From a virus (Duplodnaviria > Heunggongvirae > Uroviricota > Caudoviricetes): 64,000 nt of DNA. A model generated the notes under the pieces. The model was not told the origin of the DNA and searched no databases. It was given only the letters and a program-made list of their open reading frames with translations. Location: IMG/VR virus record IMGVR_UViG_3300047320_000132, positions 67,101 to 131,100 of that record. One strand, given 5' to 3'. Numbering within the stretch: the first letter of the stretch is position 1; each line of letters begins with the position of its first letter. A program made the position numbers and the translations under genes. Positions 5,305 to 64,000 of the stretch are shown piece after piece.

Positions 5305-5340
5305 CCTTGAAGGGGCCGAATCTGGTCCCTTATTTTTTAG
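5305..5340 (+). terminator. intrinsic terminator
   Basis: GGGGCCGAATCTGGTCCC hairpin followed by TTATTTTTT. Confidence 0.5.
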
Positions 5341-5540
5341 CCGCTTGGAGCCTCTCTTGAAGGCAGGACTAGGTTTGGTATCGACCAGGCAAGCCAGCCC
5401 GTCAGAGAGGCTGTATTGAAGTCTAAGAGGTATTCCAGTCCGAAGTTTGTGGTAGTTTTTCAGACAGAACTAGAGTCCTGAGAAAAACTGGACAGACGAT
5501 TAAAAAATTTCTTATTTAAAATCAAAGACTTAAACTAGAG

Positions 5541-5940
5541 TGTCCAATTTGTCCAATTTCACTTTGCGCTCTTGGACAGCCTCAAACGTATGCTGGCTAA
5601 GGCTTTCAGAGGATTTGTCCAATTGTCCAGTTTTTTTTCTCAACCATACCTCACTTCCTTTTTCACAATAAATTTACTAGAAAATAAAAACATAGGGTTT
5701 ACACCTAGAGTCTAAGAATCCGGGGGTCTTATATATATATAATATTTGAACTTTTTAAAAAATATATTTATATATAAGAGAGGTATTGTGGGTTTTGTAA
5801 AAAGATGTGTTACTCAATTAGAAAGTGAGGTATGGTTGAAAATTTTTTCTGGACAATTGGACAAATCCTCTGAAACCCAAGCTGGATAAGGCTTTGCGGC
5901 TGTCCAGTTTCATTTTATTTTTTGGACAAATTGGACACGA
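5541..5940. repeat. about 110-bp imperfect inverted repeat flanking an AT-rich core, built from TTGTCCAAT iterons
   Basis: The left arm (5541-5655) is the reverse complement of the right arm (5821-5940), sharing GGTTTCAGAGGATTTGTCCAATTGTCCAG and TTGTCCAATTTGTCCAA. A partial copy sits at 5941-6000. A further copy runs from 63874 to 64000 and is cut off by the window end. Confidence 0.7.
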
Positions 5941-6179
5941 AGCTCTGAAAGCCAAGCTGGGTAAGGCTTTGCGGGTTTTTGGGTTTGTCCAGTTTTTTTA
6001 AAGTCATCATTCAGGTCCTCTTTTGGTATAAGTAAAGTATGGAGAGAACTGTTGATTTCGCCTTCAGCAGAGTTCCCCTTACCTTGAATTGGGCTTACGA
6101 TTTCGTAGGGCCTTGACAAGTTGGTCTTTTACCGGAAGCTGATCCCCAATCTTCATCCGGTTTTTTTTGGTCAATTGAA

Positions 6180-7019
6180 ATGAACGACAACGTACAAACT
6201 ATCGAACAAATCCGTCACCTAGACTTCAAGGCGCTAGGTGACATGCATAAGAAATATGAGAAGAACTACTTCAGTGAAAAACTGATGCCTGGTCTTCCCA
6301 CGGTCATCCGTTTCGACGGCAACGCTTTTCACACGTTCACAAAGAACCTTAGCAAGCCTTACGACAAGGATCTGGCACAGACATTCCAATGCACGGTCGA
6401 CGATCTGATTCGAGATTTGAATCCTGATCTCGCATATCATCAAAGCGATGAGATCAGCCTCTTCTGGTTCAATCTCGATACTGAGAAACCTCTTGAGTTT
6501 GATGGTAGCGTTCAGAAGTGGTTGAGTGTGTATGCAGCAAAGTGTTCGGTTATTTTTAACTCGTACCTGCAGGGCTTTCTACCAAACAAGTTTGCTGAAC
6601 GCCCAGTCTTCGATGCTCGGGTATATCAGTATCCTCGTTGGGACCTGGCATACGATTATTTTATCTGGAGGCAGTGGGACGCCAGAAAGAATAGCGTAAG
6701 CATGGCTGCACACAGTGTCTTTTTTCATGGTGAACTTCACAAGAAGAACACTGCTGAGAAAATTGAAATGTTACGTGAGAAAGGCATCAACTTTGCAGAG
6801 TACCCAGAGTCGTTCCGTCAAGGCACGTTCACCCGTAAAGTTAAGAAGATCATGCTGATCGATGACGGAACCTGGAATCGTATCCCGGAGAAGCATCGCG
6901 GTAGCAGGGAAGTAGAACGTAGTGCGATCGTGAGGCTCACGAACATTCCGAAGCTTACGTCGTTGACGGTAAGCGATGGTAGTTTCAGGCTCTTCCACGA
7001 TCAAGCCAACGTTGCCTAA
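6180..7019 (+). CDS. Thg1-like protein (tRNA-His guanylyltransferase family 3'-5' nucleotidyltransferase)
   Basis: 279 aa. VIRFDGNAFHTFTK and AYHQSDEISLFW align to the Thg1/TLP catalytic motifs (VVRxDGRGFHKFTK, GQSDEISFVF). Confidence 0.65.
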   Translation: MNDNVQTIEQIRHLDFKALGDMHKKYEKNYFSEKLMPGLPTVIRFDGNAFHTFTKNLSKPYDKDLAQTFQCTVDDLIRDLNPDLAYHQSDEISLFWFNLDTEKPLEFDGSVQKWLSVYAAKCSVIFNSYLQGFLPNKFAERPVFDARVYQYPRWDLAYDYFIWRQWDARKNSVSMAAHSVFFHGELHKKNTAEKIEMLREKGINFAEYPESFRQGTFTRKVKKIMLIDDGTWNRIPEKHRGSREVERSAIVRLTNIPKLTSLTVSDGSFRLFHDQANVA

Positions 7020-7101
7020 ATTAGTAGCAACAATTGCGGTATAAGCGTACTGCCGGGCAAATAGCTTGGTGGTACAATATTGTTTTTAGTGAGGTAACAC
7101 A

Positions 7102-8361
7102 GTGGTAAAACTCGCCGACATGGCGCTAAACGACTTGTATGCAAAACCAAAGATTACAAGTACAGTAGAGGCAGTTATTCATGTTAAAGAGGATTTCAGT
7201 AAGATCAGCCCGACGTATTGTGAGAAGGTCTGTAAGCTGAAGTGCAAGCAATACGAATCTGTCTTTTTAGCCAAGAAAGAAGTAGACATTCTTATCATCC
7301 AGGATCATGCAGCACCGGACGGTAAGTGGGATAAGTTTGAAGGTCAGCAAGAAAAGCTGATGCAGGACATCATTTTCCATCTGTGTAAGGCAGCTGGGTT
7401 CGGGAACCTGACGTATCGTATGGTCGATCTGTTGAAGTGTTCTCCGACAGAAGCAGACTTTCCGAATGGGAAAGCTCCGACAGCAACAACGCTGATGAAG
7501 TGCAGACCCTATCTCTGGCAGGAGATTGAATCCTGTAAACCTAAGGTGATCATTAGTCTGGCAACTGCAGTGACTAAAGCGTTGGGTTACAAGAAACACA
7601 GTAATACAGGTAATCGTGGTGAGTACGTAGATAACGTCGTGATTACGATTCATCCAAGAGCACTGACGATGATTCGTCAAAACGCTTCAGGAGCCTTCTG
7701 GGGACAGGAATTGTATGGAGTGATCCTCCGTGACTTCAAGAAGGCAGCAGCGATGGTTAGAGGTGAGTTGAAGCCTCCGAAGTTGGAAGATGCTGTAAAG
7801 TTTTATCGTGAGAATAGAATTCGAGTAGCAGAGTCGATTGAAGATGTGAAGAAATACGTCGATACGGTCCAGAGTCTTCCTCCTAATTCGATCATAAGTT
7901 TTGATACGGAAACCACTTCGCTCGACGGTCTTTCTGAAGATGCTCGACTTTTAACTATCCAGTTCGGGTTTAGAGATCCCGTAGACAAAGAGGTAAAGGC
8001 AGTGGTTATTCCGTTATGGCACAGATGTAACACTGCTTATGATGCCGGTGAAGCCTGGGAACTTGTAAAACCGATTCTAGAAAGTGACCGCGCAAAATGT
8101 GGCCACAATTCGAAGTTCGATATTCTTTACATTTGGTTTACAACCGGGGTACGGGTTAAGAACGTAGCTTTTGACACCCTTCTCGTCCTTCATAGTCTTG
8201 ATAGTGGGGCGCAAGGAACCTTTGGTCTTAAAGCTGCAACGTGGGATATTGTGCCTTGGACAGGACTTGGTGGATACGAAAACAGTTTGCCCGCTCTAAC
8301 CAAGGCTAAGAATCTACCTAGCGAAGAAGAAGAGTCAGAAGAGGTTGAAAGTGAAGAATAG
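7102..8361 (+). CDS. DNA polymerase I-like (family A), N-terminal part: 3'-5' exonuclease domain
   Basis: 419 aa. Exo I motif FDTETTSLD. GTG start (ATG alternative at 7120). Acidic C-tail SEEEESEEVESEE, then a TAG stop. The polymerase domain is the separate gene at 8976. Confidence 0.8.
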   Translation: MVKLADMALNDLYAKPKITSTVEAVIHVKEDFSKISPTYCEKVCKLKCKQYESVFLAKKEVDILIIQDHAAPDGKWDKFEGQQEKLMQDIIFHLCKAAGFGNLTYRMVDLLKCSPTEADFPNGKAPTATTLMKCRPYLWQEIESCKPKVIISLATAVTKALGYKKHSNTGNRGEYVDNVVITIHPRALTMIRQNASGAFWGQELYGVILRDFKKAAAMVRGELKPPKLEDAVKFYRENRIRVAESIEDVKKYVDTVQSLPPNSIISFDTETTSLDGLSEDARLLTIQFGFRDPVDKEVKAVVIPLWHRCNTAYDAGEAWELVKPILESDRAKCGHNSKFDILYIWFTTGVRVKNVAFDTLLVLHSLDSGAQGTFGLKAATWDIVPWTGLGGYENSLPALTKAKNLPSEEEESEEVESEE

Positions 8362-24350: not shown

Positions 24351-24435
24351 CCGACTGTGGCGTAATCGGTAGCCGCAACGGACTTAAAATCCGTCGCCTT
24401 TTGGCGTACCAGTTCGAGTCTGGTCAGTCGGACCA
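24351..24435 (+). tRNA. tRNA-Leu (anticodon TAA)
   Basis: Acceptor CCGACTG/CAGTCGG. Anticodon stem ACGGA/TCCGT with loop CTTAAAA. Long variable arm. T-arm CCAG-TTCGAGT-CTGG. CCA encoded. Starts about 45 nt after a TTGGTATAAG promoter. Confidence 0.7.
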
Positions 24436-24461
24436 TTTCCATTTCTTCTTTAGGTTGCAAA

Positions 24462-24869
24462 ATGGCACTTAGCAAACAAGACGTGTTTAACAAGGTTTCG
24501 TTGCATCTGTTGAAGCAGTATGAGAAAAGCGTTGCCCCTGACGGAGAAAATCCGCATACGGGTAAGCAGATGACGAAGTGCATGTATCGTGGTAATAACG
24601 GCCTTATGTGCGCAGTTGGCTGTTTGATCCCTGACGAGTTGTACGATCCGTCAATCGAAGAACAAACCTCAAGCAGTGTAATTGCATGTGACGCACGGCT
24701 ACAGGAATTGTTTGAAGAAAATGTAATCGACGATGAAGTGTTTTTCTTGGACAGTCTTCAAATGATCCACGATAATACCCCAGTAGATGAGTGGTATCAT
24801 GAGCTGATTTACTTTGCAAAACTGAGTCTCCTCAATACCGACGTACTTTTTAACAAGGATGCAGTATGA
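24462..24869 (+). CDS. hypothetical protein
   Basis: 135 aa. Confidence 0.4.
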   Translation: MALSKQDVFNKVSLHLLKQYEKSVAPDGENPHTGKQMTKCMYRGNNGLMCAVGCLIPDELYDPSIEEQTSSSVIACDARLQELFEENVIDDEVFFLDSLQMIHDNTPVDEWYHELIYFAKLSLLNTDVLFNKDAV

Positions 24870-25120
24870 AAATCGTAATTGCAGACGGTGCCTTTGACGG
24901 CATTTCTGAAGAAGAGAAAGAAGAGATCATTGCAGAGATTAAAGCTGCGATTGCTGATGGCTCTTTCTTTAGTGAAGCAGAACCTGTTGATCTGGACCAA
25001 CTTGCAGCAGAAGATCCGGAGGCTTATGAGAAGCTTCTGAATAACATTGATAACCAGAAGGTCGAAGGTGAAGGTCAGACTTTCGAGGTTGACACTTCGT
25101 TTGGCAAGACGGTGCATTGA
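24866..25120 (+). CDS. hypothetical acidic protein
   Basis: 84 aa. ATGA overlap with the previous gene. Confidence 0.4.
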   Translation: MKIVIADGAFDGISEEEKEEIIAEIKAAIADGSFFSEAEPVDLDQLAAEDPEAYEKLLNNIDNQKVEGEGQTFEVDTSFGKTVH

Positions 25121-25485
25121 TGTTCCTCTACAAACGAAGATCAAGTTACGCCAACGGGCAAAAATACGCTTGCTTCGATTGTAGGGTTTGTTTTGCCAGT
25201 ACTCATTTCTGTCCGCATTGCAGAAAAGCTACAGTCAATGTAGGGCAGAGATTTAAAGCTCCTAAAAGAACGAACGTCAAAGAGTGGGATATCCTCGCTC
25301 TTTGGCACTACCGTTCAGACAGGAAAATTAGTATTGGTGGACGCAAACCGGCTACTCTTAAAGAGGCTAGAGAACGGTATAGTGAAACGCTCAAAGACAG
25401 GTTCGATCACAAGATCACTAAAAATGGACTTACACATAACGGGAAGTACGCTTCGTATAGCCCACCCTATGTGACTTTCAAATGA
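25117..25485 (+). CDS. hypothetical Cys-rich protein
   Basis: 122 aa with a CFDCRVC...CPHC zinc-ribbon-like motif. Confidence 0.4.
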   Translation: MMFLYKRRSSYANGQKYACFDCRVCFASTHFCPHCRKATVNVGQRFKAPKRTNVKEWDILALWHYRSDRKISIGGRKPATLKEARERYSETLKDRFDHKITKNGLTHNGKYASYSPPYVTFK

Positions 25486-25497
25486 TTCGGGGTTAAA

Positions 25498-25758
25498 ATG
25501 TCAGATACCATGAAATACATTATTATTAATGAACACTCTGCTGTAGTATTTCCCGCGAGTATCTACCATAGCGATGCAGCTGATATGGTGGGCGGCGAAC
25601 TTGGAAGTAGACATGTTACTGGAGCAGGGTATCTCGGTGCTGACGAACACGGAAAACTCTATGTGTATGGCCGCTCTGAGGGCTTTAATCTAGACTCCCG
25701 GCCTGAAGATTTGGAAGTCATTATGGGAGCGTTGCATAGGCCTTGTAAGCCGATGTGA
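25498..25758 (+). CDS. hypothetical protein
   Basis: 86 aa. Confidence 0.35.
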   Translation: MSDTMKYIIINEHSAVVFPASIYHSDAADMVGGELGSRHVTGAGYLGADEHGKLYVYGRSEGFNLDSRPEDLEVIMGALHRPCKPM

Positions 25759-25774
25759 TAAAATTGTTGACACA

Positions 25775-25806
25775 TATAGTGTTTCCGTATTAAAATCATT
25801 TTTACC
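25775..25806 (+). promoter_or_regulatory. sigma70-type promoter (TTGACA-N17-TATTAA) in front of the tRNA cluster
   Basis: TTGACACATATAGTGTTTCCGTATTAAAAT lies directly upstream of the first tRNA. Confidence 0.45.
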
Positions 25807-25820
25807 TGTCGGTGCTTTGT

Positions 25821-25893
25821 TCCGGAATAGCTCAGTTGGTAGAGCAACGCACTGTTAATGCGTGGGTCCCTGGTTCAAGTCCAGGTTTCGGAG
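25821..25893 (+). tRNA. tRNA-Asn (GTT)
   Basis: Acceptor TCCGGAA/TTTCGGA. Anticodon stem ACGCA/TGCGT, loop CTGTTAA. T-loop TTCAAGT. Confidence 0.75.
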
Positions 25894-25926
25894 CATAGCA
25901 TCGATAGGTTTAAGGGAAATTCTGGA

Positions 25927-25999
25927 GGGGATGTAGCTCCAATTGGTAGAGCAACTGCTTTGCAAGCAGAGGGTTATCGGTTCAAATCCGATCTTCTCC
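25927..25999 (+). tRNA. tRNA-Ala (TGC)
   Basis: Anticodon loop TTTGCAA. A G3-U70 wobble is present, which is the Ala identity element. T-arm ATCGG-TTCAAAT-CCGAT. Confidence 0.7.
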
Positions 26000-26004
26000 A
26001 GAAT

Positions 26005-26098
26005 TTTCTTTATGGGCCTATGGCGAAATTGATAGACGCGCTGGATTTAGGTTCCAGTGTCTTCGGACGTGTCAGTTTGAATCTGACTAGGCCTACCA
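26005..26098 (+). tRNA. tRNA-Leu (TAG)
   Basis: Acceptor GGGCCTA/TAGGCCT. Anticodon loop TTTAGGT. Long variable arm. T-arm GTCAG-TTTGAAT-CTGAC. CCA encoded. Confidence 0.75.
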
Positions 26099-26106
26099 TT
26101 ATTTGT

Positions 26107-26182
26107 TGCGGTGTAGTTCAATTGGTAGAACACCGGATTTTGATTCCGCATGTTACAGGTTCGAGTCCTGTCGCCGTTACCA
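26107..26182 (+). tRNA. tRNA-Gln (TTG)
   Basis: D-arm GTTC/GAAC. Anticodon loop TTTTGAT. T-arm ACAGG-TTCGAGT-CCTGT. The 1-72 pair is U-U, so the first pair is weak as in other Gln tRNAs. CCA encoded. Confidence 0.65.
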
Positions 26183-26193
26183 GTGTATTTTAC

Positions 26194-26284
26194 GGAAGAT
26201 TGGCAGAGTCCGGCTTATTGCACTAGTCTTGAAAACTAGCAACCACTTGACGGTGGTTCATCCGTCCAAATCGGATATCTTCCT
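26194..26284 (+). tRNA. tRNA-Ser (TGA)
   Basis: Perfect 7-bp acceptor GGAAGAT/ATCTTCC. Anticodon stem CTAGT/ACTAG, loop CTTGAAA. Long variable arm. T-loop TCCAAAT, with C rather than U at position 55. Confidence 0.7.
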
Positions 26285-26294
26285 AAAGTACATT

Positions 26295-26369
26295 GTCACA
26301 TTCGACTATCGACTAGGTCAACACCCTTTCACGGTGTAGAGATGGGTTTGATTCCCATATGTGACTCCA
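26295..26369 (+). tRNA. tRNA-Glu (TTC), non-canonical D- and T-loops
   Basis: Acceptor GTCACAT/ATGTGAC. Anticodon stem ACACC/GGTGT, loop CTTTCAC. The D-loop has no GG and the T-loop is TTTGATT with no C56. The same paired deviation appears in the Asp and Pro tRNAs. Confidence 0.55.
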
Positions 26370-26373
26370 GAAT

Positions 26374-26460
26374 AGAAACTTGGGGGAGTGGATTAACCCA
26401 GCACCCTGCTAAGGTGCCAGCTCTTATTAGGGCTCATCCGTCCGAATCGGATAGTTTCTG
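26374..26460 (+). tRNA. tRNA-Ser (GCT)
   Basis: Perfect acceptor AGAAACT/AGTTTCT. Anticodon stem GCACC/GGTGC, loop CTGCTAA. Long variable arm. T-loop TCCGAAT. Confidence 0.7.
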
Positions 26461-26462
26461 AG

Positions 26463-27017
26463 TTAATCGATTTTTAATTTGAAGTGTTTGACGACCTCTA
26501 CACATAGTTGTTGAAATTCTTCTAATGACAAATCGCCTTTAGCAACGTTGGCTGCTTTGCAAGCAAAATTGCAGTTTTCTAAAGTCCCCGGTCCACCTTT
26601 AGATCTAGGGACAATATGATCTAGATGATATTCTGACGTTTTGTGTAGATCTATATCTCTTCCCGTAAGGTAACACTTACCAGTAAATTTGGAGAGAAGG
26701 TCTTCCCAATTAAAAGAATCCGGAGTAAGCCTGGTTACTTGTCTACCTTTAGAGTCTTTAGTTTGAAAATCTCTAATTTTATCGTGGACTGGTTTTTTAA
26801 CTTGACCGCTTGCAGCGATAAATCGTTCCTTCTTTTGAAGAAGAGGATTATTCTTACGGAGTTCTTTGGTGCGATCTCTTACTTTTTGTTTTTGCCCATC
26901 ACCCAAGTGATAGGATATGGTAGCCTTAGAGCAATTAAGCTGTTTTTTAATTTCTGAGTATGAAGCGCCCTGCTCTCTCAGTGATTTGATTTGTTGTTCA
27001 AGAGTTGTATTTAACAT
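26463..27017 (-). CDS. HNH homing endonuclease with N-terminal HTH, inside the tRNA cluster
   Basis: 184 aa. HLDHIVPRSKGG...NCNFACKAAN is an HNH motif. The N-terminal helix-turn-helix resembles sigma region 4. It is the only credible - strand gene in the window. Confidence 0.75.
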   Translation of the reverse strand: MLNTTLEQQIKSLREQGASYSEIKKQLNCSKATISYHLGDGQKQKVRDRTKELRKNNPLLQKKERFIAASGQVKKPVHDKIRDFQTKDSKGRQVTRLTPDSFNWEDLLSKFTGKCYLTGRDIDLHKTSEYHLDHIVPRSKGGPGTLENCNFACKAANVAKGDLSLEEFQQLCVEVVKHFKLKID

Positions 27018-27080
27018 AGTTCGAATCCTTAATATGAATTATAAAAGATTCGAACCTTAAATGCAAATAGTTATTAATAC

Positions 27081-27165
27081 CGGTGTGTGGGTGAGTGGTT
27101 AAAACCAGCAGACTGTAAATCTGCCGCCTCTGGCTTCGATAGTTCGAATCTATCCGCACCGACCA
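27081..27165 (+). tRNA. tRNA-Tyr (GTA)
   Basis: Acceptor CGGTGTG/CGCACCG. Anticodon stem GCAGA/TCTGC, loop CTGTAAA. Long variable arm, as in bacterial Tyr tRNAs. T-arm GATAG-TTCGAAT-CTATC. CCA encoded. Confidence 0.75.
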
Positions 27166-27179
27166 AACAGAGAAGAATT

Positions 27180-27362
27180 ATGTCTTCTAAAACAACGCAG
27201 TACAAGGACATGGTCCTGTCTACCAACACAGATCTTTTCAAAGCAGTTCAGGACGGTGAAACTGAAAAAGCTGCGCAGATGTACAAAGATCTGAACGACG
27301 CCTTCTATAAAGCTAACCCTGGGTGGAAGCCCTATCCTTCGAAGGTGAAACATGTCGCATAA
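27180..27362 (+). CDS. hypothetical small protein
   Basis: 61 aa from the internal Met. The upstream part of the track ORF overlaps tRNA-Tyr. Confidence 0.3.
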   Translation: MSSKTTQYKDMVLSTNTDLFKAVQDGETEKAAQMYKDLNDAFYKANPGWKPYPSKVKHVA

Positions 27363-27735
27363 ACAAGTTATCGTAATGCGCAAAGACCTTGGAATGCGCA
27401 AAGGGAAAATGATTGCTCAAGGTGCGCATGCAAGTCTTGCGGCGATTCTGAGTCAGATGCGAGAATACATCCACGACACTCTTGAGTTGCAGATGGATGA
27501 AAGAACCAAGCCTTGGCTCACAGGCAACTTCAAAAAAGTGTGTGTATATGTAAATTCCGAAGAGGAACTACTCGCACTCTATGCAAAGGCAAAAGCTTCT
27601 GGCATAATCACTGCATTGATTACAGACTCAGGTCTGACAGAATTTCACGGTGTCCCGACCAATACCTGCATCGCAGTTGGTCCGGATTTTGAAGATAAGA
27701 TAGATACGGTGACCGGTGGGTTGCCACTTCTATAG
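27352..27735 (+). CDS. pth2: Peptidyl-tRNA hydrolase, PTH2 family
   Basis: 127 aa. VIVMRKDLGMRKGKMIAQGAHAS...FKKVCVYVNSEEEL...ITDSGLTEFHGVPTNTCIAVGP matches the PTH2 signature along its whole length. Confidence 0.8.
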   Translation: MSHKQVIVMRKDLGMRKGKMIAQGAHASLAAILSQMREYIHDTLELQMDERTKPWLTGNFKKVCVYVNSEEELLALYAKAKASGIITALITDSGLTEFHGVPTNTCIAVGPDFEDKIDTVTGGLPLL

Positions 27736-27747
27736 AGGAAATGTATA

Positions 27748-28020
27748 ATGAGTTTTATCCAAACAGTTGAAGACGACGTTAAAGCAGTAGTCGCAAAGAT
27801 TGAAGGTCTGTTCCACAGCAAGACTGCTGAAGAGATCAAGACCGAGCTTGAAGCAGAGGTCAAGAAGATTCAAGACGCTGCTGAAGCAAAGATCGAAGCG
27901 CTTCGTGCAAAGATTCAGCCGAAGATTGACGCAAAGCTTGCCGAAATTAAAACGGATGTTGCAGCAGCAGTTTCGACAGCAGTTGCAGATGGCGTAAAGA
28001 GCGCAATCGAAAAGGCTTAA
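27748..28020 (+). CDS. hypothetical coiled-coil protein rich in Ala, Lys and Glu
   Basis: 90 aa of amphipathic helix repeats. Confidence 0.45.
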   Translation: MSFIQTVEDDVKAVVAKIEGLFHSKTAEEIKTELEAEVKKIQDAAEAKIEALRAKIQPKIDAKLAEIKTDVAAAVSTAVADGVKSAIEKA

Positions 28021-28029
28021 AGTTTCAAT

Positions 28030-28106
28030 GTCGGGATAGCCAAATTGGTTAAGGCCTTCGCCTGCAAAGCGAAAGATTGAGAGTTCGAGTCCCTCTCCCG
28101 ACTCCA
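28030..28106 (+). tRNA. tRNA-Cys (GCA)
   Basis: Acceptor GTCGGGA/TCCCGAC. Anticodon stem TTCGC/GCGAA, loop CTGCAAA. T-loop TTCGAGT. CCA encoded. Confidence 0.7.
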
Positions 28107-28155
28107 GTTATAACAGGTCCCGCTGCTACCTGATAAAGAAAGCAGCCCAAACACT

Positions 28156-28230
28156 GGCTCCATCGTATAGTGATTATTACACTCCCCTGTCCAGGGAGAT
28201 ATCGGAGTTTGATTCTCCGTGGGGTCGCCA
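28156..28230 (+). tRNA. tRNA-Asp (GTC), non-canonical D- and T-loops
   Basis: Anticodon stem CTCCC/GGGAG, loop CTGTCCA. T-arm CGGAG-TTTGATT-CTCCG. The D-loop lacks GG. CCA encoded. Confidence 0.6.
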
Positions 28231-28702
28231 ATACAGTAGAAGCACCATGTCTGAACTGAGTTTGAAGGATCACGTTAAAGGATCCGTAGTTTTGAAAAGT
28301 ATCACAAAGGTAATCTTTGGTATACTACTTCGTCTGGACTTGAGTTTCCGGTTCCGATTTCAGATACTGGTGATGCTGAGTTTCATATCTCTGATAAAGC
28401 GCTGTTATTCATGCGCTGGATTAGAAAGCACCTAGATGAAATTGCAAAAGCAAAGCAAGAGCAAGAAGTAAGCATTGGTTAAAAGAACCTCCTCCGTTAG
28501 GTTGCGCAGTGCCCCATATGGATCGCTCCCTCGTAAATGGGAAACGTCAGGCCCGAGTGACGTAAATTCTCGGCATCCCAATTCTAGACGCTGAGCGTTA
28601 AAGCTCACTGCCAGAAGTTAAACAGACATCCCGTGTGGGGATTAGATCTGCGGGGGTATGGCCGTTACGACCTGGACAATGTCGCTAAACTTTTGTCCAC
28701 AC

Positions 28703-28780
28703 GCCCGTATAGCTCAGTTGGTAGTAGCACTCGCCTTGTAAGCGAGAGGTCACTGGTTCGAATCCTAGTTACGGGCACCA
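28703..28780 (+). tRNA. tRNA-Thr (TGT)
   Basis: Perfect acceptor GCCCGTA/TACGGGC. Anticodon stem CTCGC/GCGAG, loop CTTGTAA. The T-arm register is ambiguous (one extra nt or one mismatch). Confidence 0.6.
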
Positions 28781-28787
28781 GTATTTC

Positions 28788-28863
28788 CCCCAGGTAGCTC
28801 AGTTGGTAGAGCGGCATGTTGAAGCCTTGCGCGTCGGAGGTTCGAGTCCTTCTCTGGGGACCA
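28788..28863 (+). tRNA. tRNA-Phe (GAA)
   Basis: 76 nt with standard numbering. Anticodon loop TTGAAGC. T-arm GGAGG-TTCGAGT-CCTTC. CCA encoded. Confidence 0.65.
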
Positions 28864-28873
28864 GTTTAACAAT

Positions 28874-28951
28874 CGCGGAGTAGAGCAGCCCGGTAGCTCA
28901 GCAGGCTCATAACCTGAAGGTCGGTGGGTTCAAATCCCCCCTCCGCAACCA
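28874..28951 (+). tRNA. initiator-like tRNA-fMet (CAT) with C1-A72 mismatch
   Basis: CGCGGAGTAGAGCAGCCCGGTAGCTC...GGCTCATAACC...TTCAAATCC...CTCCGCAACCA is very close to E. coli tRNA-fMet and includes the unpaired C1-A72 end that marks initiator tRNAs. Confidence 0.7.
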
Positions 28952-28956
28952 AACAA

Positions 28957-29032
28957 CGGAACTTAGCTCAGTTGGTAGAGCCTCGGATTTACATTCCGAA
29001 TGTCACAGGTTCGACCCCTGTAGTTCCGACCA
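28957..29032 (+). tRNA. tRNA-Val (TAC)
   Basis: Perfect acceptor CGGAACT/AGTTCCG. Canonical D-arm. Anticodon stem TCGGA/TCCGA, loop TTTACAT. CCA encoded. Confidence 0.75.
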
Positions 29033-29049
29033 TTAATAACGAGGTAGAC

Positions 29050-29256
29050 ATGGCAACCGATAGTAAAGAAATCGTTCGTGTATTCCGCAGTTACAAAAAA
29101 GAGAATGGTTGGCCGATGGCTCACGAAGCTGCTAACCTAATCGAGAAGTTAGAGAAAGAAGTAGCAGATTTGAAGATTGGTATTGAAGTTCTCTGCAAAC
29201 AACTAGGTGAAGCTAATCATAATCACCTTGCATATCTAGTCGATCAACTTAAATAG
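29050..29256 (+). CDS. hypothetical protein
   Basis: 69 aa from the Met after tRNA-Val. The longer track ORF overlaps three tRNAs. Ends with TAG. Confidence 0.4.
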   Translation: MATDSKEIVRVFRSYKKENGWPMAHEAANLIEKLEKEVADLKIGIEVLCKQLGEANHNHLAYLVDQLK

Positions 29257-29261
29257 ATTTA

Positions 29262-29339
29262 CCCTGCTTAGCTCATGTCTGGTAGAGCACTCGACCGATA
29301 ATCGAGAGGTGCCTGGATCGTCGCCAGGAGCAGGGACCA
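29262..29339 (+). tRNA. tRNA-Ile (GAT)
   Basis: Perfect acceptor CCCTGCT/AGCAGGG. Anticodon stem CTCGA/TCGAG, loop CCGATAA, with C at position 33. T-loop ATCGTCG is unusual. CCA encoded. Confidence 0.65.
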
Positions 29340-29475
29340 AACAAAGCAATATGAACCACCTAGAAGAAGAAGCAGCCTGGTGTAGAGCGCAGCTTAAAGA
29401 AATGGTTGGAGACAGGTTGTACAAGTGTAGTTGCTGGATTTTGCATACAGACGAATGTGAAAGAAGGAACAAAGA

Positions 29476-29718
29476 ATGTTTGATCGATCAGAACGCAGAC
29501 ACCACGTCGAAAGGTTAAAAGAAACACGCAAAGCATACGGTTGGCGTAAAGAACCGTTGACACCCAGGCAACTCGGTGCAGTAGTACAACATCCGCAGAT
29601 GTGTTCCTGCTCTGGGTGTGGAAATCCTCGTAGACACAAGTGGTTTAAGAGCGAGTGTTTAACTCTTCAGGAACGTTCACAATTAGAAGCTCTTAAAACT
29701 TACGAGTTTGAAGGGTAA
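29476..29718 (+). CDS. hypothetical basic Cys-containing protein
   Basis: 80 aa with a CSCSGC motif. Confidence 0.35.
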   Translation: MFDRSERRHHVERLKETRKAYGWRKEPLTPRQLGAVVQHPQMCSCSGCGNPRRHKWFKSECLTLQERSQLEALKTYEFEG

Positions 29719-29728
29719 TTTCAACAGT

Positions 29729-29806
29729 CCGAGTGTAGGCTAGCCAGATTAAGTCGTCTGCTTTGGGAGCAGAAAATCGCAGGTTTGAATCCTGCCACTC
29801 GGACCA
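29729..29806 (+). tRNA. tRNA-Pro (TGG), non-canonical D- and T-loops
   Basis: Acceptor CCGAGTG/CACTCGG. Anticodon stem TCTGC/GCAGA, loop TTTGGGA. T-arm GCAGG-TTTGAAT-CCTGC. The D-loop lacks GG. CCA encoded. Confidence 0.6.
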
Positions 29807-29817
29807 CTCTTTTCACT

Positions 29818-30033
29818 ATGACAACCCTATATCAAATCAAGCTTGTTGTGGATCGTGTTTATCCTGAATACAAAGCCAATAGTGGTTTCATCGATAGTCT
29901 TGACGTCGTAGAAATCGTAATGGCTGTAGAAGATCAACTCAACGTTCAATTCGACGATTACAAACTTGAGAAGTTTCAGGCCGATACTCCGCTGGCGGAT
30001 ATTCCTGAAATTCTTTACGGAGCATTGGTTTAA
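29818..30033 (+). CDS. acpP: Acyl carrier protein
   Basis: 72 aa. SGFIDSLDVVEIVMAVEDQLNVQFDD carries the DSL phosphopantetheine-attachment serine in the usual helix-II context. Start moved to the Met after tRNA-Pro. Confidence 0.6.
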   Translation: MTTLYQIKLVVDRVYPEYKANSGFIDSLDVVEIVMAVEDQLNVQFDDYKLEKFQADTPLADIPEILYGALV

Positions 30034-30090
30034 TGTTTAACGACGCATACTTTCACAATTGGCATAGTAGACCATATAGAGGAAACTACT

Positions 30091-30492
30091 ATGTCACGCA
30101 CTTATCGCCGTCAAAAGGGTTACGTTCCTAAATACGTTATCGATGCGACTGAGCCTCTCAAAGGCCCGGATGCAGAAGACGCTGAACGTCTGACCGATCC
30201 CAAGAACTTCTACCGTGGAAAAATCCCCGGTTGGTACAAGGGTTACGCAAAGGTTAACGGGCAGTGGTTCCGCTACGGAACTAACAAAGCTTTCGGTCAG
30301 CAAATGGCTTTCTGGTTCGGGGATCACGGCTACGCCTGGCGTCGTCTCTACGGAAAGGACACTTGCAAATTTGTCCGAGGGCACACCCAGGTCCAGTACC
30401 GTATGGATGCCAAGTTGGAACTCGACAAGTACCGCAAGAACCCTGATTACGAAGTACAAATTCCCCGCAAGAATCTCTTGCCGTGGGACTGA
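30091..30492 (+). CDS. hypothetical protein
   Basis: 133 aa rich in aromatic and basic residues. Confidence 0.45.
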   Translation: MSRTYRRQKGYVPKYVIDATEPLKGPDAEDAERLTDPKNFYRGKIPGWYKGYAKVNGQWFRYGTNKAFGQQMAFWFGDHGYAWRRLYGKDTCKFVRGHTQVQYRMDAKLELDKYRKNPDYEVQIPRKNLLPWD

Positions 30493-30494
30493 AC

Positions 30495-30525
30495 AACGCC
30501 CAGCTTAGGCTGGGCTTTTTATTTG
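30495..30525 (+). terminator. intrinsic terminator
   Basis: GCCCAGCTTAGGCTGGGC hairpin followed by TTTTTATTT. Confidence 0.6.
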
Positions 30526-30533
30526 GAGAAATC

Positions 30534-31148
30534 ATGAGCTGGAGCATCGCCCTGCTTGAGAATACTGTCGAAGTTTCTGCAAAGATTGCGGAAGAGTTAG
30601 TTAAGGCCCAAAGCTATAAGGGAGAATTCTGGAGCAACGGATTTGAAGTAACTTACAAGGGTAAGCTTTACTTCAACCCCGATCACTCCGAACACATGGA
30701 CTTTTTAACAGACGAAAAGTTACTGGAAGTACTGACGAAGAACAAGGTTGAAGGCAGGATCTGTTTCGCTTCGCTTGAAGGCGACAACAGAGGTGAATTT
30801 TGGGGCTATGAATTTGATGGCAAAGGCGCAGTGCATGCGCTTGTAGGCTCCCTTGTATTTCAGCGTAAAATTGTCGAGCCGGAAATCCAATTTCCAAAAG
30901 AATACGTCCTGGTTAAAACCTCACGAGTATACTACGGTGGTCCAGTCCGAGAACCACACCTACCGGTTACCTCTTTGGACGTGGCTATAGCCCTTGCACG
31001 GGGCTCGGTTAATCCAGTTGGGTACGATGTATATGAACTGGTTCCCCGAGGCACTGAAGCCCTGCATCCAGTTTGGAGATATGCCGATCGTGCTTCATAT
31101 AAACAGGCAGTAGATCAGATTGACCCCCTTCATGACGGAGTTGAGTAA
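30534..31148 (+). CDS. hypothetical protein
   Basis: About 204 aa. Start moved to the Met with the GGAGAA RBS, because the track start overlaps a terminator hairpin at 30495-30522. Confidence 0.5.
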   Translation: MSWSIALLENTVEVSAKIAEELVKAQSYKGEFWSNGFEVTYKGKLYFNPDHSEHMDFLTDEKLLEVLTKNKVEGRICFASLEGDNRGEFWGYEFDGKGAVHALVGSLVFQRKIVEPEIQFPKEYVLVKTSRVYYGGPVREPHLPVTSLDVAIALARGSVNPVGYDVYELVPRGTEALHPVWRYADRASYKQAVDQIDPLHDGVE

Positions 31149-31324
31149 TGGAAGTCAAAGTTCAACTTACAACAGAAGAAGTAAAACAGGCTATTAAGAA
31201 TTACGTGAATACACAAGGAATGAGCCTCTCTGTTAAAGAAATACAATTCGGGGACAGAGGTGAAGCTACTGTTACTTGTGAAAAGGCGAAGCACCCAACT
31301 GGTTTTGGAGCATACGATCGATGA
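31148..31324 (+). CDS. hypothetical small protein
   Basis: About 58 aa (MEVKVQLTTEEVKQAIKNYV...). ATGA overlap with the previous gene. Below the ORF-track length cut-off. Confidence 0.3.
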   Translation: MEVKVQLTTEEVKQAIKNYVNTQGMSLSVKEIQFGDRGEATVTCEKAKHPTGFGAYDR

Positions 31325-31424
31325 GCTGGCCTGAAGCTTTCGCAACAGTAGGATGCGCATTTGCGTTCGTAGCGTTTATCTGGATCTTGACACGCTAACT
31401 GTGTTTTATTAAACTAGCAGTATT

Positions 31425-31500
31425 GGGAATATAGCTCAGTTGGCAGAGCAGCGGATTCTAAATCTGAAGGTCTCGGGTTCGAGCCCCGATGTTCCTACCA
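31425..31500 (+). tRNA. tRNA with CUA anticodon (amber suppressor-type). Amino acid identity unresolved.
   Basis: A 76-nt canonical cloverleaf. Acceptor GGGAATA/TGTTCCT. D-arm GCTC-AGTTGGCA-GAGC. Anticodon stem GCGGA/TCTGA, loop TTCTAAA, so positions 34-36 are CTA. Short variable arm. T-arm TCGGG-TTCGAGC-CCCGA. A73. CCA encoded. Confidence 0.55.
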
Positions 31501-31614
31501 AACATTTAAAGGAATTACCATGAAGCTCGATAAGCTCTAGGTTACGAAGCCTCCGTAAGACAACCTTACCTAAAAGCACCGTAGTACCTACACTTTTACT
31601 TAAGGAAATTAATC

Positions 31615-31938
31615 ATGTCTTACATTTATTCAATCATTCGCAAAGATATTCCCCTCGCAGATCAGATCGTTCAGACTGCGCATTCCGCATTTCACGCTGG
31701 CCAAGCCGATCCGAAAAACGGTGCGGCATTAGATTGTGAAATCCCTTCGCTGGTCCTCTTGCAGGTGCCAAACGAAGAAGCCTTGCTTGAGCTTCACAAA
31801 AAACTTAAGGCTGCAGGCATCGTTCACAGCACGTTCCACGAGCCTGACGATGACATGGGTTGGACGTCGATCACGACCGTGTCTATTAATCAGGAAGATC
31901 GTAAGCTCTTTAGTAATTTGCCTTTGTGGAGACCCTAA
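31615..31938 (+). CDS. divergent PTH2-like peptidyl-tRNA hydrolase candidate
   Basis: 107 aa. The N-terminus IYSIIRKDIPLADQIVQTAHSAFHAG parallels the PTH2 motif (vvRxDLxMxxGKxaAQxxHA). The rest of the protein is divergent. Confidence 0.4.
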   Translation: MSYIYSIIRKDIPLADQIVQTAHSAFHAGQADPKNGAALDCEIPSLVLLQVPNEEALLELHKKLKAAGIVHSTFHEPDDDMGWTSITTVSINQEDRKLFSNLPLWRP

Positions 31939-32166
31939 ATGAACGATAGGATTCTTATCTTCTACAATAAGGCGCATAACACTGATACCTCAATACCGCC
32001 GTGGGTCTGCCAATCTAAAGGTCAGACATACAATGTTAATCATATTACAATCGGAAGTGGCATTGGCTTCTCGACCAAGGAGAGGCCCGACCACTCTAGT
32101 ACCAAGGCGTGTCTCGTTGTTAAAGGTACGTTGACGATCAAGGATGGTGAGGCGTTGATAAATTAA
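31939..32166 (+). CDS. hypothetical protein
   Basis: 75 aa. Confidence 0.3.
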   Translation: MNDRILIFYNKAHNTDTSIPPWVCQSKGQTYNVNHITIGSGIGFSTKERPDHSSTKACLVVKGTLTIKDGEALIN

Positions 32167-32212
32167 TCTTTACAACTTTTCTTTAGATGTATGTTTAGAG
32201 TAAAATAGAAAT

Positions 32213-32758
32213 ATGAACTCTGACATACTTCAACCCTTGATAGATATGGGATTGACAGCCAAAGAAATGAGTGAACATCTTGGCTGTTCAATTCATAAAG
32301 TAAAGTACTACATGAAAAAACTGGGTATTAAAACCCAGCTTGCCCAAAAGTACGATTCATACGTTTCGTATGAACAATTAAAAACTAAAATTTGCCGCTC
32401 TTGCAAATTAGAAAAATCTGTTTTTGAATTTAGAAAAGTTGTTATATCTGGTAAAGAAAAACCCGGCTCTTATTGCAAAGCGTGTGTAAAGCAACAAAAC
32501 TATGCAGCTAAAAATAGTATTAAAAAACAGGCCTTAGATTATAAAGGTAATAAATGCCAGTGTTGCGGATACGACAAATATGAAGGCGCTTTAGAATTTC
32601 ATCATTTAGATCCTAAAGAAAAAGACTTTCTTATTTCTAGATACGGACGAGACGCTACTTTAAATGACAAAGATTTATTTACAGAATTAGATAAATGTGC
32701 TTTACTGTGTTCCAATTGTCACCGTGAGGTTCATGCAGGACTCATTAAACTAGATTGA
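32213..32758 (+). CDS. HNH homing endonuclease with N-terminal HTH, paralog of the gene at 41978
   Basis: 181 aa. GNKCQCCGYDKYEGALEFHHLDPKEKDF...LLCSNCHREVH is near-identical in its C-terminal half to the 41978 protein. Confidence 0.75.
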   Translation: MNSDILQPLIDMGLTAKEMSEHLGCSIHKVKYYMKKLGIKTQLAQKYDSYVSYEQLKTKICRSCKLEKSVFEFRKVVISGKEKPGSYCKACVKQQNYAAKNSIKKQALDYKGNKCQCCGYDKYEGALEFHHLDPKEKDFLISRYGRDATLNDKDLFTELDKCALLCSNCHREVHAGLIKLD

Positions 32759-32760
32759 GT

Positions 32761-32770
32761 TTGGTATAAG
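32761..32770 (+). promoter_or_regulatory. TTGGTATAAG promoter motif upstream of the tRNA-like elements and the AAA+ gene
   Basis: TTGGTATAAGAGAATTGTG. Confidence 0.45.
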
Positions 32771-32798
32771 AGAATTGTGAAAGAACATTTCTTTTATA

Positions 32799-32868
32799 AA
32801 CAAAATAGCTCAATTGGTAGAGCGCACATACTCTTGTGAGGCTGGGGGCTCGTATCCCCCTTTTGTTA
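32799..32868 (+). ncRNA. tRNA-like element (pseudo-tRNA?) with canonical acceptor and D-arm but a defective anticodon arm
   Basis: Acceptor AACAAAA/TTTTGTT. D-arm TA-GCTC-AATTGGTA-GAGC. T-arm GGGGG-CTCGTAT-CCCCC. The anticodon region does not form a standard 5-bp, 7-nt stem-loop. Lies 28 nt downstream of a TTGGTATAAG promoter. Confidence 0.35.
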
Positions 32869-32884
32869 GCTTAGTAAACTTCTT

Positions 32885-32968
32885 GGGCGTGACACCGTGC
32901 GCTGGCAGGTAACGGCCTCATAAGCCGTCGGAGAAATCCCATCGTGGGTTGGAATCCCACCGCGCCCA
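32885..32968 (+). ncRNA. tRNA-like element with CAT anticodon loop, long variable arm and an over-extended terminal stem
   Basis: Acceptor GGGCGTG/CGCGCCC. Anticodon stem ACGGC/GCCGT, loop CTCATAA. 15-nt variable arm. T-arm GTGGG-TTGGAAT-CCCAC. The terminal helix extends to 13 bp (AACTTCTTGGGCG/CGCCCAAGAAGTT), which is not tRNA-like. Confidence 0.35.
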
Positions 32969-33052
32969 AGAAGTTTATTGAGAAGCTTTATAACCACCCC
33001 TCTGAAGTCTAGAGGGGTTTTTCTTTGCAGCACTTTTTGTAGCCTAATCGAT

Positions 33053-44068: not shown

Positions 44069-44148
44069 GGGATCGTAGCTCAGCCTGGTTCAAGAGCATT
44101 CGACTTTTAATCGAATGGTCGTTGGTTCAAATCCAACCGGTCCTACCA
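44069..44148 (+). tRNA. tRNA-Lys (TTT)
   Basis: Anticodon stem TTCGA/TCGAA, loop CTTTTAA. T-arm GTTGG-TTCAAAT-CCAAC. CCA encoded. A TGTATAAT -10 lies upstream. Confidence 0.7.
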
Positions 44149-44150
44149 AC

Positions 44151-44229
44151 AGGTCAGTAGTGACAATTGGCTTAACACGCAGGACTCCAAATCCTTGAGA
44201 TTGCGGTTCGAATCCGTACTGACTTGCCA
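44151..44229 (+). tRNA. tRNA-Trp (CCA)
   Basis: Acceptor AGGTCAG/CTGACTT. Anticodon loop CTCCAAA. T-arm TGCGG-TTCGAAT-CCGTA. CCA encoded. Starts 2 nt after tRNA-Lys. Confidence 0.6.
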
Positions 44230-44249
44230 TATTAATAACAGGAGTAATC

Positions 44250-44462
44250 ATGGACGAACACGTTCTGCCAGTAGTGAAACATGAGTTTCCGCTGCAAGTC
44301 GTAATCGGTAGCGAAGTGGTGACTTTCAATTCGCCGGAAGAAATCCCTGCCGGTGCGCAGTTCAAGATTTACGTGAAACCCGAACCTGAGGTTGTGAAGG
44401 CAGTGCCGAAGATCATCAATACCGGCAAAGCTCGCACCTGGAACAACAACGCAGTGGATTAA
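44250..44462 (+). CDS. hypothetical protein
   Basis: 70 aa. Confidence 0.4.
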   Translation: MDEHVLPVVKHEFPLQVVIGSEVVTFNSPEEIPAGAQFKIYVKPEPEVVKAVPKIINTGKARTWNNNAVD

Positions 44463-44474
44463 GGAGTAGTTGAG

Positions 44475-44873
44475 ATGATGCACGGAAATGGACAACGTTC
44501 GGTTACGGTCGATCGCCTGAAGCTGATCGAAAAACTGAAGTCCAACCTTGAAATTCACATCAAGGACTACGAAGAAGCAAAGATCGGTTACAAGATCAAA
44601 CTGAAGCAGGATCTTGAAGATGCTCTGGAATTCTTCGACGAAAGGCCGTACGAACAGCTTCCCAAGCTCATCGTCCAGAACAATCCTCCGCGTAGCTACG
44701 AGAAGGAATACCTCGATGCTATCACGCTGCTCGAATGGCAAGTCGGCGATACGGTGGAACTGGACCAGACGACGTTCAAGCAATTCGTTCAGAACGAGTG
44801 GGCGTGGAGCGGCGGGTTCGAAGCGATGAACACGACCTATAAGAGCTTCGCAGCAAGCGCCGCTCGTCGTTAA
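44475..44873 (+). CDS. hypothetical protein
   Basis: 132 aa. Confidence 0.45.
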   Translation: MMHGNGQRSVTVDRLKLIEKLKSNLEIHIKDYEEAKIGYKIKLKQDLEDALEFFDERPYEQLPKLIVQNNPPRSYEKEYLDAITLLEWQVGDTVELDQTTFKQFVQNEWAWSGGFEAMNTTYKSFAASAARR

Positions 44874-44985
44874 CAAGTTTCAGTGCGGGTTTGGTATAGA
44901 TGAATGTGCAGCGGTTTTCCAAACCGACGAGACGAGTTTGATACTCGTAGCCCGCTCAAAGTATCTAAGGTAGAAAGTTCTTAGA

Positions 44986-45059
44986 GCCACTGTAGGATAA
45001 TGGATTAATCTCCGGAGCTTCTACCTCCGTTTATGCGAGTTCGACCCTCGCCGGTGGCT
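44986..45059 (+). tRNA. tRNA-Arg (TCT)
   Basis: Acceptor GCCACTG/CGGTGGC. D-arm GGAT-AATGGATTA-ATCT. Anticodon stem CGGAG/CTCCG, loop CTTCTAC. T-arm GCGAG-TTCGACC-CTCGC. No CCA encoded. Confidence 0.6.
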
Positions 45060-45356
45060 CTAAGTTCTTTCCCAGGAGTAACATTTTGGAAACCAATCAT
45101 GAAACTCAGAGCAATCTTCCTGTTTGTAGTAACGATGATGACGATGGCCTCGTGCGCAACACAGCCGAGCCCCGCGTATTACGCAAAGGATTCTTTCTTG
45201 CATGGCGTCTCAGCGACAACGAATTAGACCTCCCCGACGAGAAGGTTTGAACGAGGTTCTTGTCTCCAAAGCTAAGGGCGGCGGAGAGCATAAGAACCGT
45301 AAAGACAAACGAACGTATAAGCGTAAGCTTGACAAAGAGTCAAAGGAAGAGTTGGA

Positions 45357-63870: not shown

Positions 63871-64000
63871 TGAAAAAAACTGGACAAATGAGGAATCACT
63901 GAAAGCCTTACTGGTATTGGGTTGCTGGTTACGTGTCCAATTTGTCCAATTTCACTTTGCACTATTGGACAGCCGCAAAGCCTTATCTGGCTTGAGTTCT

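Follow-up and report, generated by a model that had tools for sequence, protein, structure and literature searches.

A phage-encoded Thg1-like protein

The phage sequence analyzed here, a 64,000-nucleotide stretch (positions 67,101 to 131,100) of IMG/VR virus record IMGVR_UViG_3300047320_000132, encodes an intact member of the Thg1/Thg1-like protein (TLP) family. We refer to the whole of this stretch as the window and use its own numbering throughout. The gene is an open reading frame (ORF) of 279 aa at 6180..7019 on the + strand, and its product is a bacterial-type TLP rather than a dedicated Thg1. The active site is intact, and by analogy with cellular TLPs the protein probably repairs 5'-truncated tRNAs by templated 3'-5' addition. 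The chemistry of the protein is better supported than its biological role: the analysis shows its family, its fold, its intact active site, purifying selection on the gene, and the genomic context, and we infer its oligomeric state, substrate, templating, and any role in infection or counter-defense.

The product of the ORF matched the Pfam profile Thg1 (PF04446) with 91.4 bits (E = 5.9e-26; cut-off 29.2 bits) over profile positions 4-130 of 130, and PHROG 4717, 'tRNA-His guanylyltransferase', with E = 1.5e-66. The top match among solved structures was the Bacillus thuringiensis TLP (BtTLP, 4kgk, E = 1.4e-33). Weaker matches were to the Methanosarcina acetivorans TLP (MaTLP, 5axk, 2e-10) and to the yeast, human, and Candida Thg1 (about 1e-8 to 1e-9). 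The profile search and the structure matches agree on the family that a first-pass annotation, made from the letters of the DNA and their translations, had proposed. NCBIfam returned no matches for the TLP or for five neighboring ORFs.

We modeled the TLP monomer with AlphaFold2 (AF2) from a 51-sequence alignment (mean pLDDT 89.2, pTM 0.86). The model has an RRM-like palm domain and a C-terminal helical and hairpin region, as in Thg1. In a Foldseek search of the model against the PDB, all 32 matches at E<=1e-3 were Thg1/TLP chains, with BtTLP first and target-normalized TM values of 0.63-0.82. The structural alignments reach about 200-260 columns and include the C-terminal half of the protein. 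The next matches were to Cas10 and nucleotide cyclases, which are known distant palm-domain relatives, at E>0.01.

Active site and subtype

Both signature blocks that the first-pass annotation had recognized are present. Motif 1, VIRFDGNAFHTFTK, occupies residues 42-55 (6303..6344, + strand) and motif 2, AYHQSDEISLFW, residues 85-96 (6432..6467, + strand). The residues were mapped to BtTLP and human Thg1 (hThg1), and their roles follow the published description of the BtTLP structure (PMC3701042). By alignment, R44 in motif 1 contacts the phosphate of the incoming NTP, D46 is the first metal-binding carboxylate, and H51 and T54 contact the activating NTP; the equivalent residues are R28/D30/H35/T38 in BtTLP and R27/D29 in hThg1. 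In motif 2, S89 acts in the activation step, D90 is the second metal-binding carboxylate, and E91 is the third carboxylate (S74/D75/E76 in BtTLP, S75/D76/E77 in hThg1). All three catalytic carboxylates, whose absence at the aligned positions would have spoken against the earlier family assignment, are therefore in place (D46/D90/E91, equivalent to D29/D76/E77 in hThg1 and D30/D75/E76 in BtTLP), and the profile searches place the protein in Thg1/TLP and not in an unrelated family.

The correspondence with BtTLP extends to E27, R44, H51, T54, K59, S89, K113, R147, R164, and M175, which align with BtTLP E12, R28, H35, T38, K43, S74, K99, R131, R147, and M158. In an alignment of 51 homologs with 31-91% identity, the invariant positions are K24, R44, D46, G47, F50, P60, Y86, Q88, S89, D90, E91, I92, K113, D145, R164, D167, N171, and G215. 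The BtTLP equivalent of the conserved K113, K99, acts across the dimer interface.

In the alignment to eukaryotic Thg1 structures, the HINNLYN motif has no counterpart in the phage TLP. Its position is taken by the segment ARKNSVS (6681..6701, + strand; alignments to 3otb/7cv1 and 4kgk), which resembles ASKNSIS of BtTLP and in which N171 is invariant among the homologs. The AF2 secondary structure also contains a long beta-hairpin (6825..6938, + strand), formed by strands 216-226 and 244-253 with a short helix inserted; the block pLDDT over this part of the model is about 90 or higher. In MaTLP, a beta-hairpin binds the tRNA elbow and measures the length of the acceptor stem (PMC4820378). MaTLP residue 196 aligns to residue 221 of the phage TLP, and in the model the phage hairpin would be the positional equivalent of this elbow-binding hairpin; its sequence is unconserved, and MaTLP R215 has no confidently assigned counterpart. 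The phage protein is assigned to the bacterial TLP type because HINNLYN is absent, the BtTLP-like segment is present, and a long beta-hairpin is predicted, and also because the match to BtTLP (1.4e-33) is so much stronger than those to eukaryotic Thg1 (1e-8 to 1e-10).

Proposed function and alternative substrates

By homology, the phage TLP would form a dimer of dimers with a two-metal active site in the palm domain. An RNA end with a 5'-monophosphate would be activated with ATP or GTP, and a 5'-triphosphate end could be used directly. The missing nucleotide or nucleotides would then be added in the 3'-5' direction, templated by Watson-Crick pairing with the 3' strand of the acceptor stem, and addition would halt at position +1, once the beta-hairpin no longer reaches the tRNA elbow. 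The substrates are most probably 5'-truncated tRNAs, either phage-encoded or from the host. The TLP would be one arm of a tRNA maintenance toolkit together with Pnkp/Hen1 (break healing, sealing, and 2'-O-methylation), PTH2, an RF-1-domain (ArfB-like) protein, Ro60, and about 24 tRNA genes. Within this toolkit, the Pnkp kinase could plausibly furnish the 5'-phosphate that the TLP activates.

This reading, which the first-pass annotation had also favored, is consistent with the family and subtype features of the sequence. We prefer a general 5'-repair activity because it fits both those features and the RNA-maintenance context of the gene. BtTLP has a 5-160-fold preference for 5'-truncated tRNAs, without a bias for G and beyond tRNA-His (PMC3061083), and the binding of MaTLP to the acceptor stem and elbow does not depend on the anticodon (PMC4820378). 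The TLP genes of other phages likewise have tRNA or RNA-repair genes as neighbors: in RsoM2USA there is a tRNA array 3 kb downstream, and in XbC2 an RNA ligase, a nucleotidyltransferase, and DUF2828 are nearby.

Several points weigh against general repair. The Thg1C profile (PF14413) scored 15.9 bits, under its cut-off of 26.3, and one BtTLP residue with an assigned role, R16 (gamma-phosphate contact), is unmatched, being S32 in the phage TLP. The proposed substrate comes entirely from cellular homologs, since no assay of any phage TLP was found in the literature searched, and the in vivo role of bacterial TLPs in general is unsettled. Among the antiphage nucleases checked, none gives damage that a TLP could repair, and no other source of 5'-truncated tRNAs was found. 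The functional link to Hen1/Pnkp and the tRNA array through proximity is also weak, because the distances are 6.8 kb and 17 kb, respectively, with replication genes in between. The first-pass annotation had placed the gene next to Pnkp/Hen1, Pth2 genes, and the tRNA set; all of these are in the window, but "next to" was too loose a description for distances of 6.8 kb (Hen1) to 17-20 kb (tRNAs and PTH2).

The activity that names the Thg1 family is the addition of G-1 to tRNA-His, and the phage protein might be a true tRNA-His guanylyltransferase that adds or restores G-1 opposite C73, necessarily on the tRNA-His of the host. The window contains 22 tRNAs found by ARAGORN and two found only by Rfam, between 24351 and 45060, and these cover 19 amino acids and a CUA suppressor, with tRNA-His as the sole missing one. 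It was not found in the 64-kb window by ARAGORN, by Rfam at the gathering threshold, or by Rfam at E<=1, and of the two tRNAs that Rfam alone detected, one is Gly-UCC and the other an aberrant tRNA-like RNA. Nor was it found in the flanks available for the same phage (L001, L002, L008, L009) or in four relatives, whose arrays keep the same order; the second tRNA cluster of the relatives contains Lys and Arg and again no His. These scans cover part of the phage genome: the window, the flanks, and the arrays of the relatives. Since tRNA-His alone is missing from the window and from the arrays of the relatives, His decoding appears to depend on the host tRNA-His. Addition of G-1 opposite C73 is within the capacity of TLPs, which also have a second binding mode for tRNAs with a GUG anticodon (PMC4820378), and two of the three MaTLP residues implicated in recognizing the anticodon are conserved (N179 = N204 and R188 = R213; F174 = R199 differs). 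However, BtTLP favors truncated tRNAs over -1 addition (PMC3061083), the phage protein lacks the HINNLYN motif that dedicated Thg1 enzymes have, and the related phage RsoM2USA needs no such addition, since its tRNA-His gene carries G-1 opposite C73 in the canonical bacterial manner. Many TLP phages infect alphaproteobacteria, a clade of which has tRNA-His without G-1. With no tRNA-His gene in the window or in the arrays of the relatives, obligatory maturation of a phage-encoded tRNA-His is unlikely. The match of N204 and R213 to MaTLP leaves some probability of action on the tRNA-His of the host, but we consider a true guanylyltransferase an unlikely identity for this protein.

The phage TLP might also act on RNAs other than tRNA, or on tRNA-like RNAs, in repair or in remodeling of 5' ends. 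Some eukaryotic TLPs have been reported to be active on non-tRNA substrates, and the window offers candidates: the tRNA-like RNA with a 6-nt loop, which is conserved and has its own promoter-like motif, and a Y-like RNA partnered with Ro60, as well as other 5' ends. The YrlA-like match that would represent the Y-like RNA scored 28 bits (E = 0.066), far under the gathering score of 69 bits, and the beta-hairpin and acceptor-binding architecture suits the canonical tRNA shape; this alternative seems to us improbable. In the 5' editing of mitochondrial tRNAs, TLPs serve as the polymerase, and programmed editing of the amoebozoan mitochondrial type, in which mismatched nucleotides at acceptor positions 1-3 are replaced, would have the 24 phage tRNA genes of the window as possible targets. 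Of the 22 ARAGORN tRNAs, just two are mismatched at these positions: tRNA-Gln has U1.U72, and one tRNA-Met(CAU) has C1.A72, as expected of a bacterial initiator tRNA. With no systematic 5' mispairing in the acceptor stems, we rejected the editing hypothesis as highly improbable. A further, quite doubtful scenario makes the TLP a His-specific arm of the toolkit that keeps G-1 on the host tRNA-His through the anticodon-dependent mode, or an enzyme that rebuilds 5' ends hit by an undiscovered defense nuclease, with expression gated by a terminator-like hairpin.

Possible role in counter-defense

The first-pass annotation had further suggested that general 5'-end repair could counter nucleases that nick the acceptor stem, and here we found no known nuclease that matches. 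Retron Eco2, the only antiphage acceptor-stem nickase that we found, makes its cut 6-7 nt from the CCA end in the 3' strand, which a TLP needs as template. Cas12a3 cuts the 3' CCA tails of tRNAs, and Cash cuts the T-loop. The lesions made by these antiphage tRNases are not repairable by a TLP, because the enzyme requires an intact 3' strand as template. If TLPs do repair tRNA 5' ends during infection, 5'-end rebuilding would be a third chemistry directed against tRNA-targeting immunity, in addition to the known phage answers, replacement tRNAs and break repair of the Pnkp/ligase type. Host nucleases directed at tRNA 5' ends, so far undescribed, would then be expected as well. This question concerns the whole annotated phage family (161 records) and not this gene in particular.

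Relatives and comparison with known systems

An identical protein (P0001) is found on seven metagenomic contigs, and the JGI label for this exact protein is 'tRNA(His) 5'-end guanylyltransferase'. About 17 metagenomic relatives have 61-100% identity, after which identity falls to about 45%. Close relatives are on IMG/VR viral contigs of 134-181 kb. Comparison with the relatives gave a dN of about 0.2 with saturated dS, and the gene is maintained under purifying selection. The nearest homolog from an isolate is that of jumbo phage RsoM2USA (42%), followed by XbC2, by jumbo phages of Erwinia, Serratia, Yersinia, and Cronobacter, and by Caulobacter phages. A megablast of positions 5000-9000 against the phage collection returned no matches, so no close sequenced relative is known from it. 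By these sequence comparisons, the TLP and its metagenomic relatives, about 17 sequences, form an uncultured clade, and the TLP has at most 42% identity to any isolate. The homologs in jumbo phages and the relatives on IMG/VR viral contigs support a phage origin of the window.

TLP homologs are present in 161 phage records, many of them annotated 'tRNA-His guanylyltransferase', and many of the phages that carry them infect Caulobacter, Brevundimonas, Sinorhizobium, Agrobacterium, and Phaeobacter. Annotated phage TLPs (PHROG 4717) include RsoM2USA ORF183, XacN1 ORF126/585, XbC2_144, and those of GAP32, Serratia BF, Bacillus SPO1-like phages, Caulobacter phiCbK-like phages, and Mycobacterium phages such as Yeet. 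As here, they occur in large tRNA-rich phages, with Pnkp/Hen1, PTH2, a CCA-adding enzyme, RNA ligase, and a suppressor tRNA as companions; in contrast to the others, the gene described here lies between primase/HU and PolA genes, and, in contrast to RsoM2USA and XacN1, the present phage clade shows no tRNA-His in the regions seen. The novelty implied in the first-pass annotation does not hold, given the number of phage records and the earlier descriptions of the same combination of genes. The XacN1 paper lists Thg1, PNKP, Hen1, PTH2, a CCA enzyme, and 56 tRNAs together (PMC5852040), and Iyer et al. 2021 described Thg1, the CCA-adding enzyme, and PTH2 as RNA-repair components of jumbo phages (PMC7824862). 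The RsoM2USA paper lists a 'putative Thg1', and the 2010 paper on the Thg1 palm domain has Pseudomonas phage 201phi2-1 among its organisms. The TLP is a divergent new member of a known and already interpreted family. What the sequence contributes is one more divergent, apparently intact TLP, surrounded by a well-defined set of RNA-maintenance genes; it brings nothing that is new in kind.

Among cellular proteins, BtTLP (4kgk/4kgm) is the closest, with about 40% identity over residues 18-215. The two share the fold (Foldseek 1.9e-15), the catalytic and NTP-binding residues except R16, and KNS(I/V)S in place of HINNLYN. However, the phage TLP is about 34 residues longer, with about 15 extra residues at the N-terminus that are disordered in the model and with the short-helix insertion in the beta-hairpin, and it is encoded beside the replication genes of a phage, whereas BtTLP is bacterial. 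MaTLP (5axk-5axn) shares the family, the fold, the predicted position of the hairpin, and the equivalents of N179 and R188; the identity is only about 26%, the hairpin sequence is unconserved, and a ruler mechanism in the phage TLP would be by analogy. The eukaryotic Thg1 enzymes (human 3otb, yeast 5xox, Candida 3wbz) share the palm-domain fold, the three carboxylates, and the two-step activation and transfer chemistry. The phage TLP is 22-24% identical to them and lacks HINNLYN, and its activity is expected to depend on a template and to extend beyond tRNA-His.

Genomic neighborhood

With its genes on the + strand, the window resembles a section of the genome of a large, tRNA-rich phage of the jumbo type. 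Upstream of the TLP gene are a primase-type protein (252-3227) and HU (3687-3965). Directly downstream is a family A DNA polymerase in two ORFs, followed by RNase H. The split PolA consists of an ORF with a UDG-like domain and a 3'-5' exonuclease (7102-8361) and a polymerase ORF (8976-10679). A 212-aa ORF without a family match (8345-8983) lies between the two halves; it is missing in relative L011, where the halves abut, and it is probably a mobile insertion.

The RNA break repair pair follows, with Hen1 at 13857-15158 (+ strand; Pfam Hen1_N, 2.6e-50) and the Pnkp kinase-phosphatase-ligase at 15168-17591 (+ strand; PNKP_ligase, 1.5e-22, with Metallophos and AAA_33), and ribonucleotide reductase is downstream of the pair. 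The relatives L001, L002, and L011 share the gene order TLP, PolA, RNase H, Hen1, Pnkp. Hen1/Pnkp are 6.8 kb downstream of the TLP gene, and PTH2 and the 24 tRNA genes 17-39 kb downstream. The main tRNA array spans 24351..32969 (+ strand; ARAGORN and Rfam), and a second cluster (Lys, Trp, Gly-UCC, and Arg) is at 44069..45060 (+ strand). The first-pass annotation had spoken of Pth2 genes in the plural. One clear PTH2 gene is embedded in the tRNA array (27352-27735), and the second PTH2-like ORF (31615-31938) is marginal, with 22.4 bits against a cut-off of 23. The RF-1-domain protein, an ArfB-like peptidyl-tRNA hydrolase, is at 38675-39205.

The Ro60/TROVE protein is encoded at 61957-63579, and no relatives of it were found in the viral contigs searched. 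The weak YrlA-like (Y-RNA) match is at 60462-60530, about 1.4 kb upstream, and the two could form a phage Ro-Y RNA module. Two NAD salvage genes are also in the window, NMNAT-Nudix (48016-49164) and NAMPT (49901-51298), and between them is an ORF that resembles a GIY-YIG homing endonuclease (49164-49868).

tRNAs and tRNA-like RNAs

Six elongator tRNAs start with C1:G72, namely Leu-UAA, Tyr, Phe, Val, Ile, and Pro (at 24351, 27081, 28788, 28957, 29262, and 29729, respectively); C1 is unusually frequent here for tRNAs of bacterial type. An exact 25-mer of the tRNA-Val had no matches in viral contigs.

The tRNA-like RNA at 32799-32868 scored 49.5 bits with the Rfam tRNA model. It has a 4-bp anticodon stem, a 6-nt loop of variable sequence, and an acceptor stem composed entirely of A and U. 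It is conserved in relatives (about 16000-16067 in L027 and 15758-15830 in L028) with a compensatory change in the acceptor stem, and its promoter-like motif is about 30 nt upstream. Decoding by this RNA is unlikely; it could be a decoy or a regulator.

A suppressor tRNA (31425-31500; 15219-15294 in relative L027) occupies a fixed slot in the array. The window and three relatives have a CUA (amber) anticodon in this tRNA, one relative has UCA (opal), and this switch hints at a stop-codon reassignment that differs between close relatives. The tRNA-Met(CAU) at 32884-32969 has a long variable arm, and its 5' leader and 3' trailer lengthen the acceptor helix to about 19 bp; the relatives carry an ordinary tRNA-Met in this slot.

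Upstream region and regulatory elements

Upstream of the TLP gene is an 875-nt gap (5305-6179) without a long ORF. A promoter-like element, TTGGTATAAG..AAGTA (6023..6044, + strand), is located about 135 nt upstream of the ATG and is conserved in relatives. The more general form of the motif, T(T/G)GGTATAAG, resembles an extended -10 box and has about 18 copies in the window at <=1 mismatch, all on the + strand, none on the - strand, and mostly intergenic (for example at 139, 3981, 6023, 13779, 17611, 24299, 32761, 37278, 39221, 41248, 45689, 52509, 54411, and 59054). Judged by this distribution, it is probably the main promoter class of the phage. Copies of TTGGTATAAG also precede Hen1, the first tRNA of the array, and the tRNA-like RNA. 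We rejected a specific co-regulation of the TLP with Hen1 and the tRNA array through the shared motif, because the motif is general, with its approximately 18 copies.

A conserved hairpin (6131-6161, + strand) and a T8 run (6161-6168) end 11 nt before the ATG of the TLP gene. Four distinct relatives also form the hairpin, with folding energies of -11 to -17 kcal/mol; its CCGG/CCGG base is conserved, and its upper stem co-varies. No Shine-Dalgarno sequence follows the hairpin and T8 run; most of the other genes surveyed in the window have one. We read the hairpin and U-run as a putative terminator- or attenuator-like element, and this conserved element abutting a start codon is one small new detail, of modest weight. 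A structured riboswitch or T-box in the leader is unsupported, as there was no Rfam match and the fold of the whole leader was of ordinary stability (z=-0.78). Compared with L010 and L014, the leader is no more conserved than the coding sequence, and only the terminal hairpin and U-run are kept. A terminator-like hairpin 3' of the TLP stop codon (7047..7075, + strand) was found by a consensus scan only.

The same gap contains inverted arms of 59 nt (5601-5659/5820-5878, 85% complementary) that enclose a near-invariant AT-rich palindrome (5727-5779), and several TGGACA(A)ATTGGACA iterons. Contigs of several independent assemblies end within 5598-5952. Because it lies between the primase/HU genes and PolA, the gap could be an origin or a regulatory hub. 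The 15-nt iteron TGGACAAATTGGACA occurs again at 63934-63948, near the 3' end of the window, where the Logan contig bearing Ro60 also ends; these iterons may be dispersed repeats that break assemblies.

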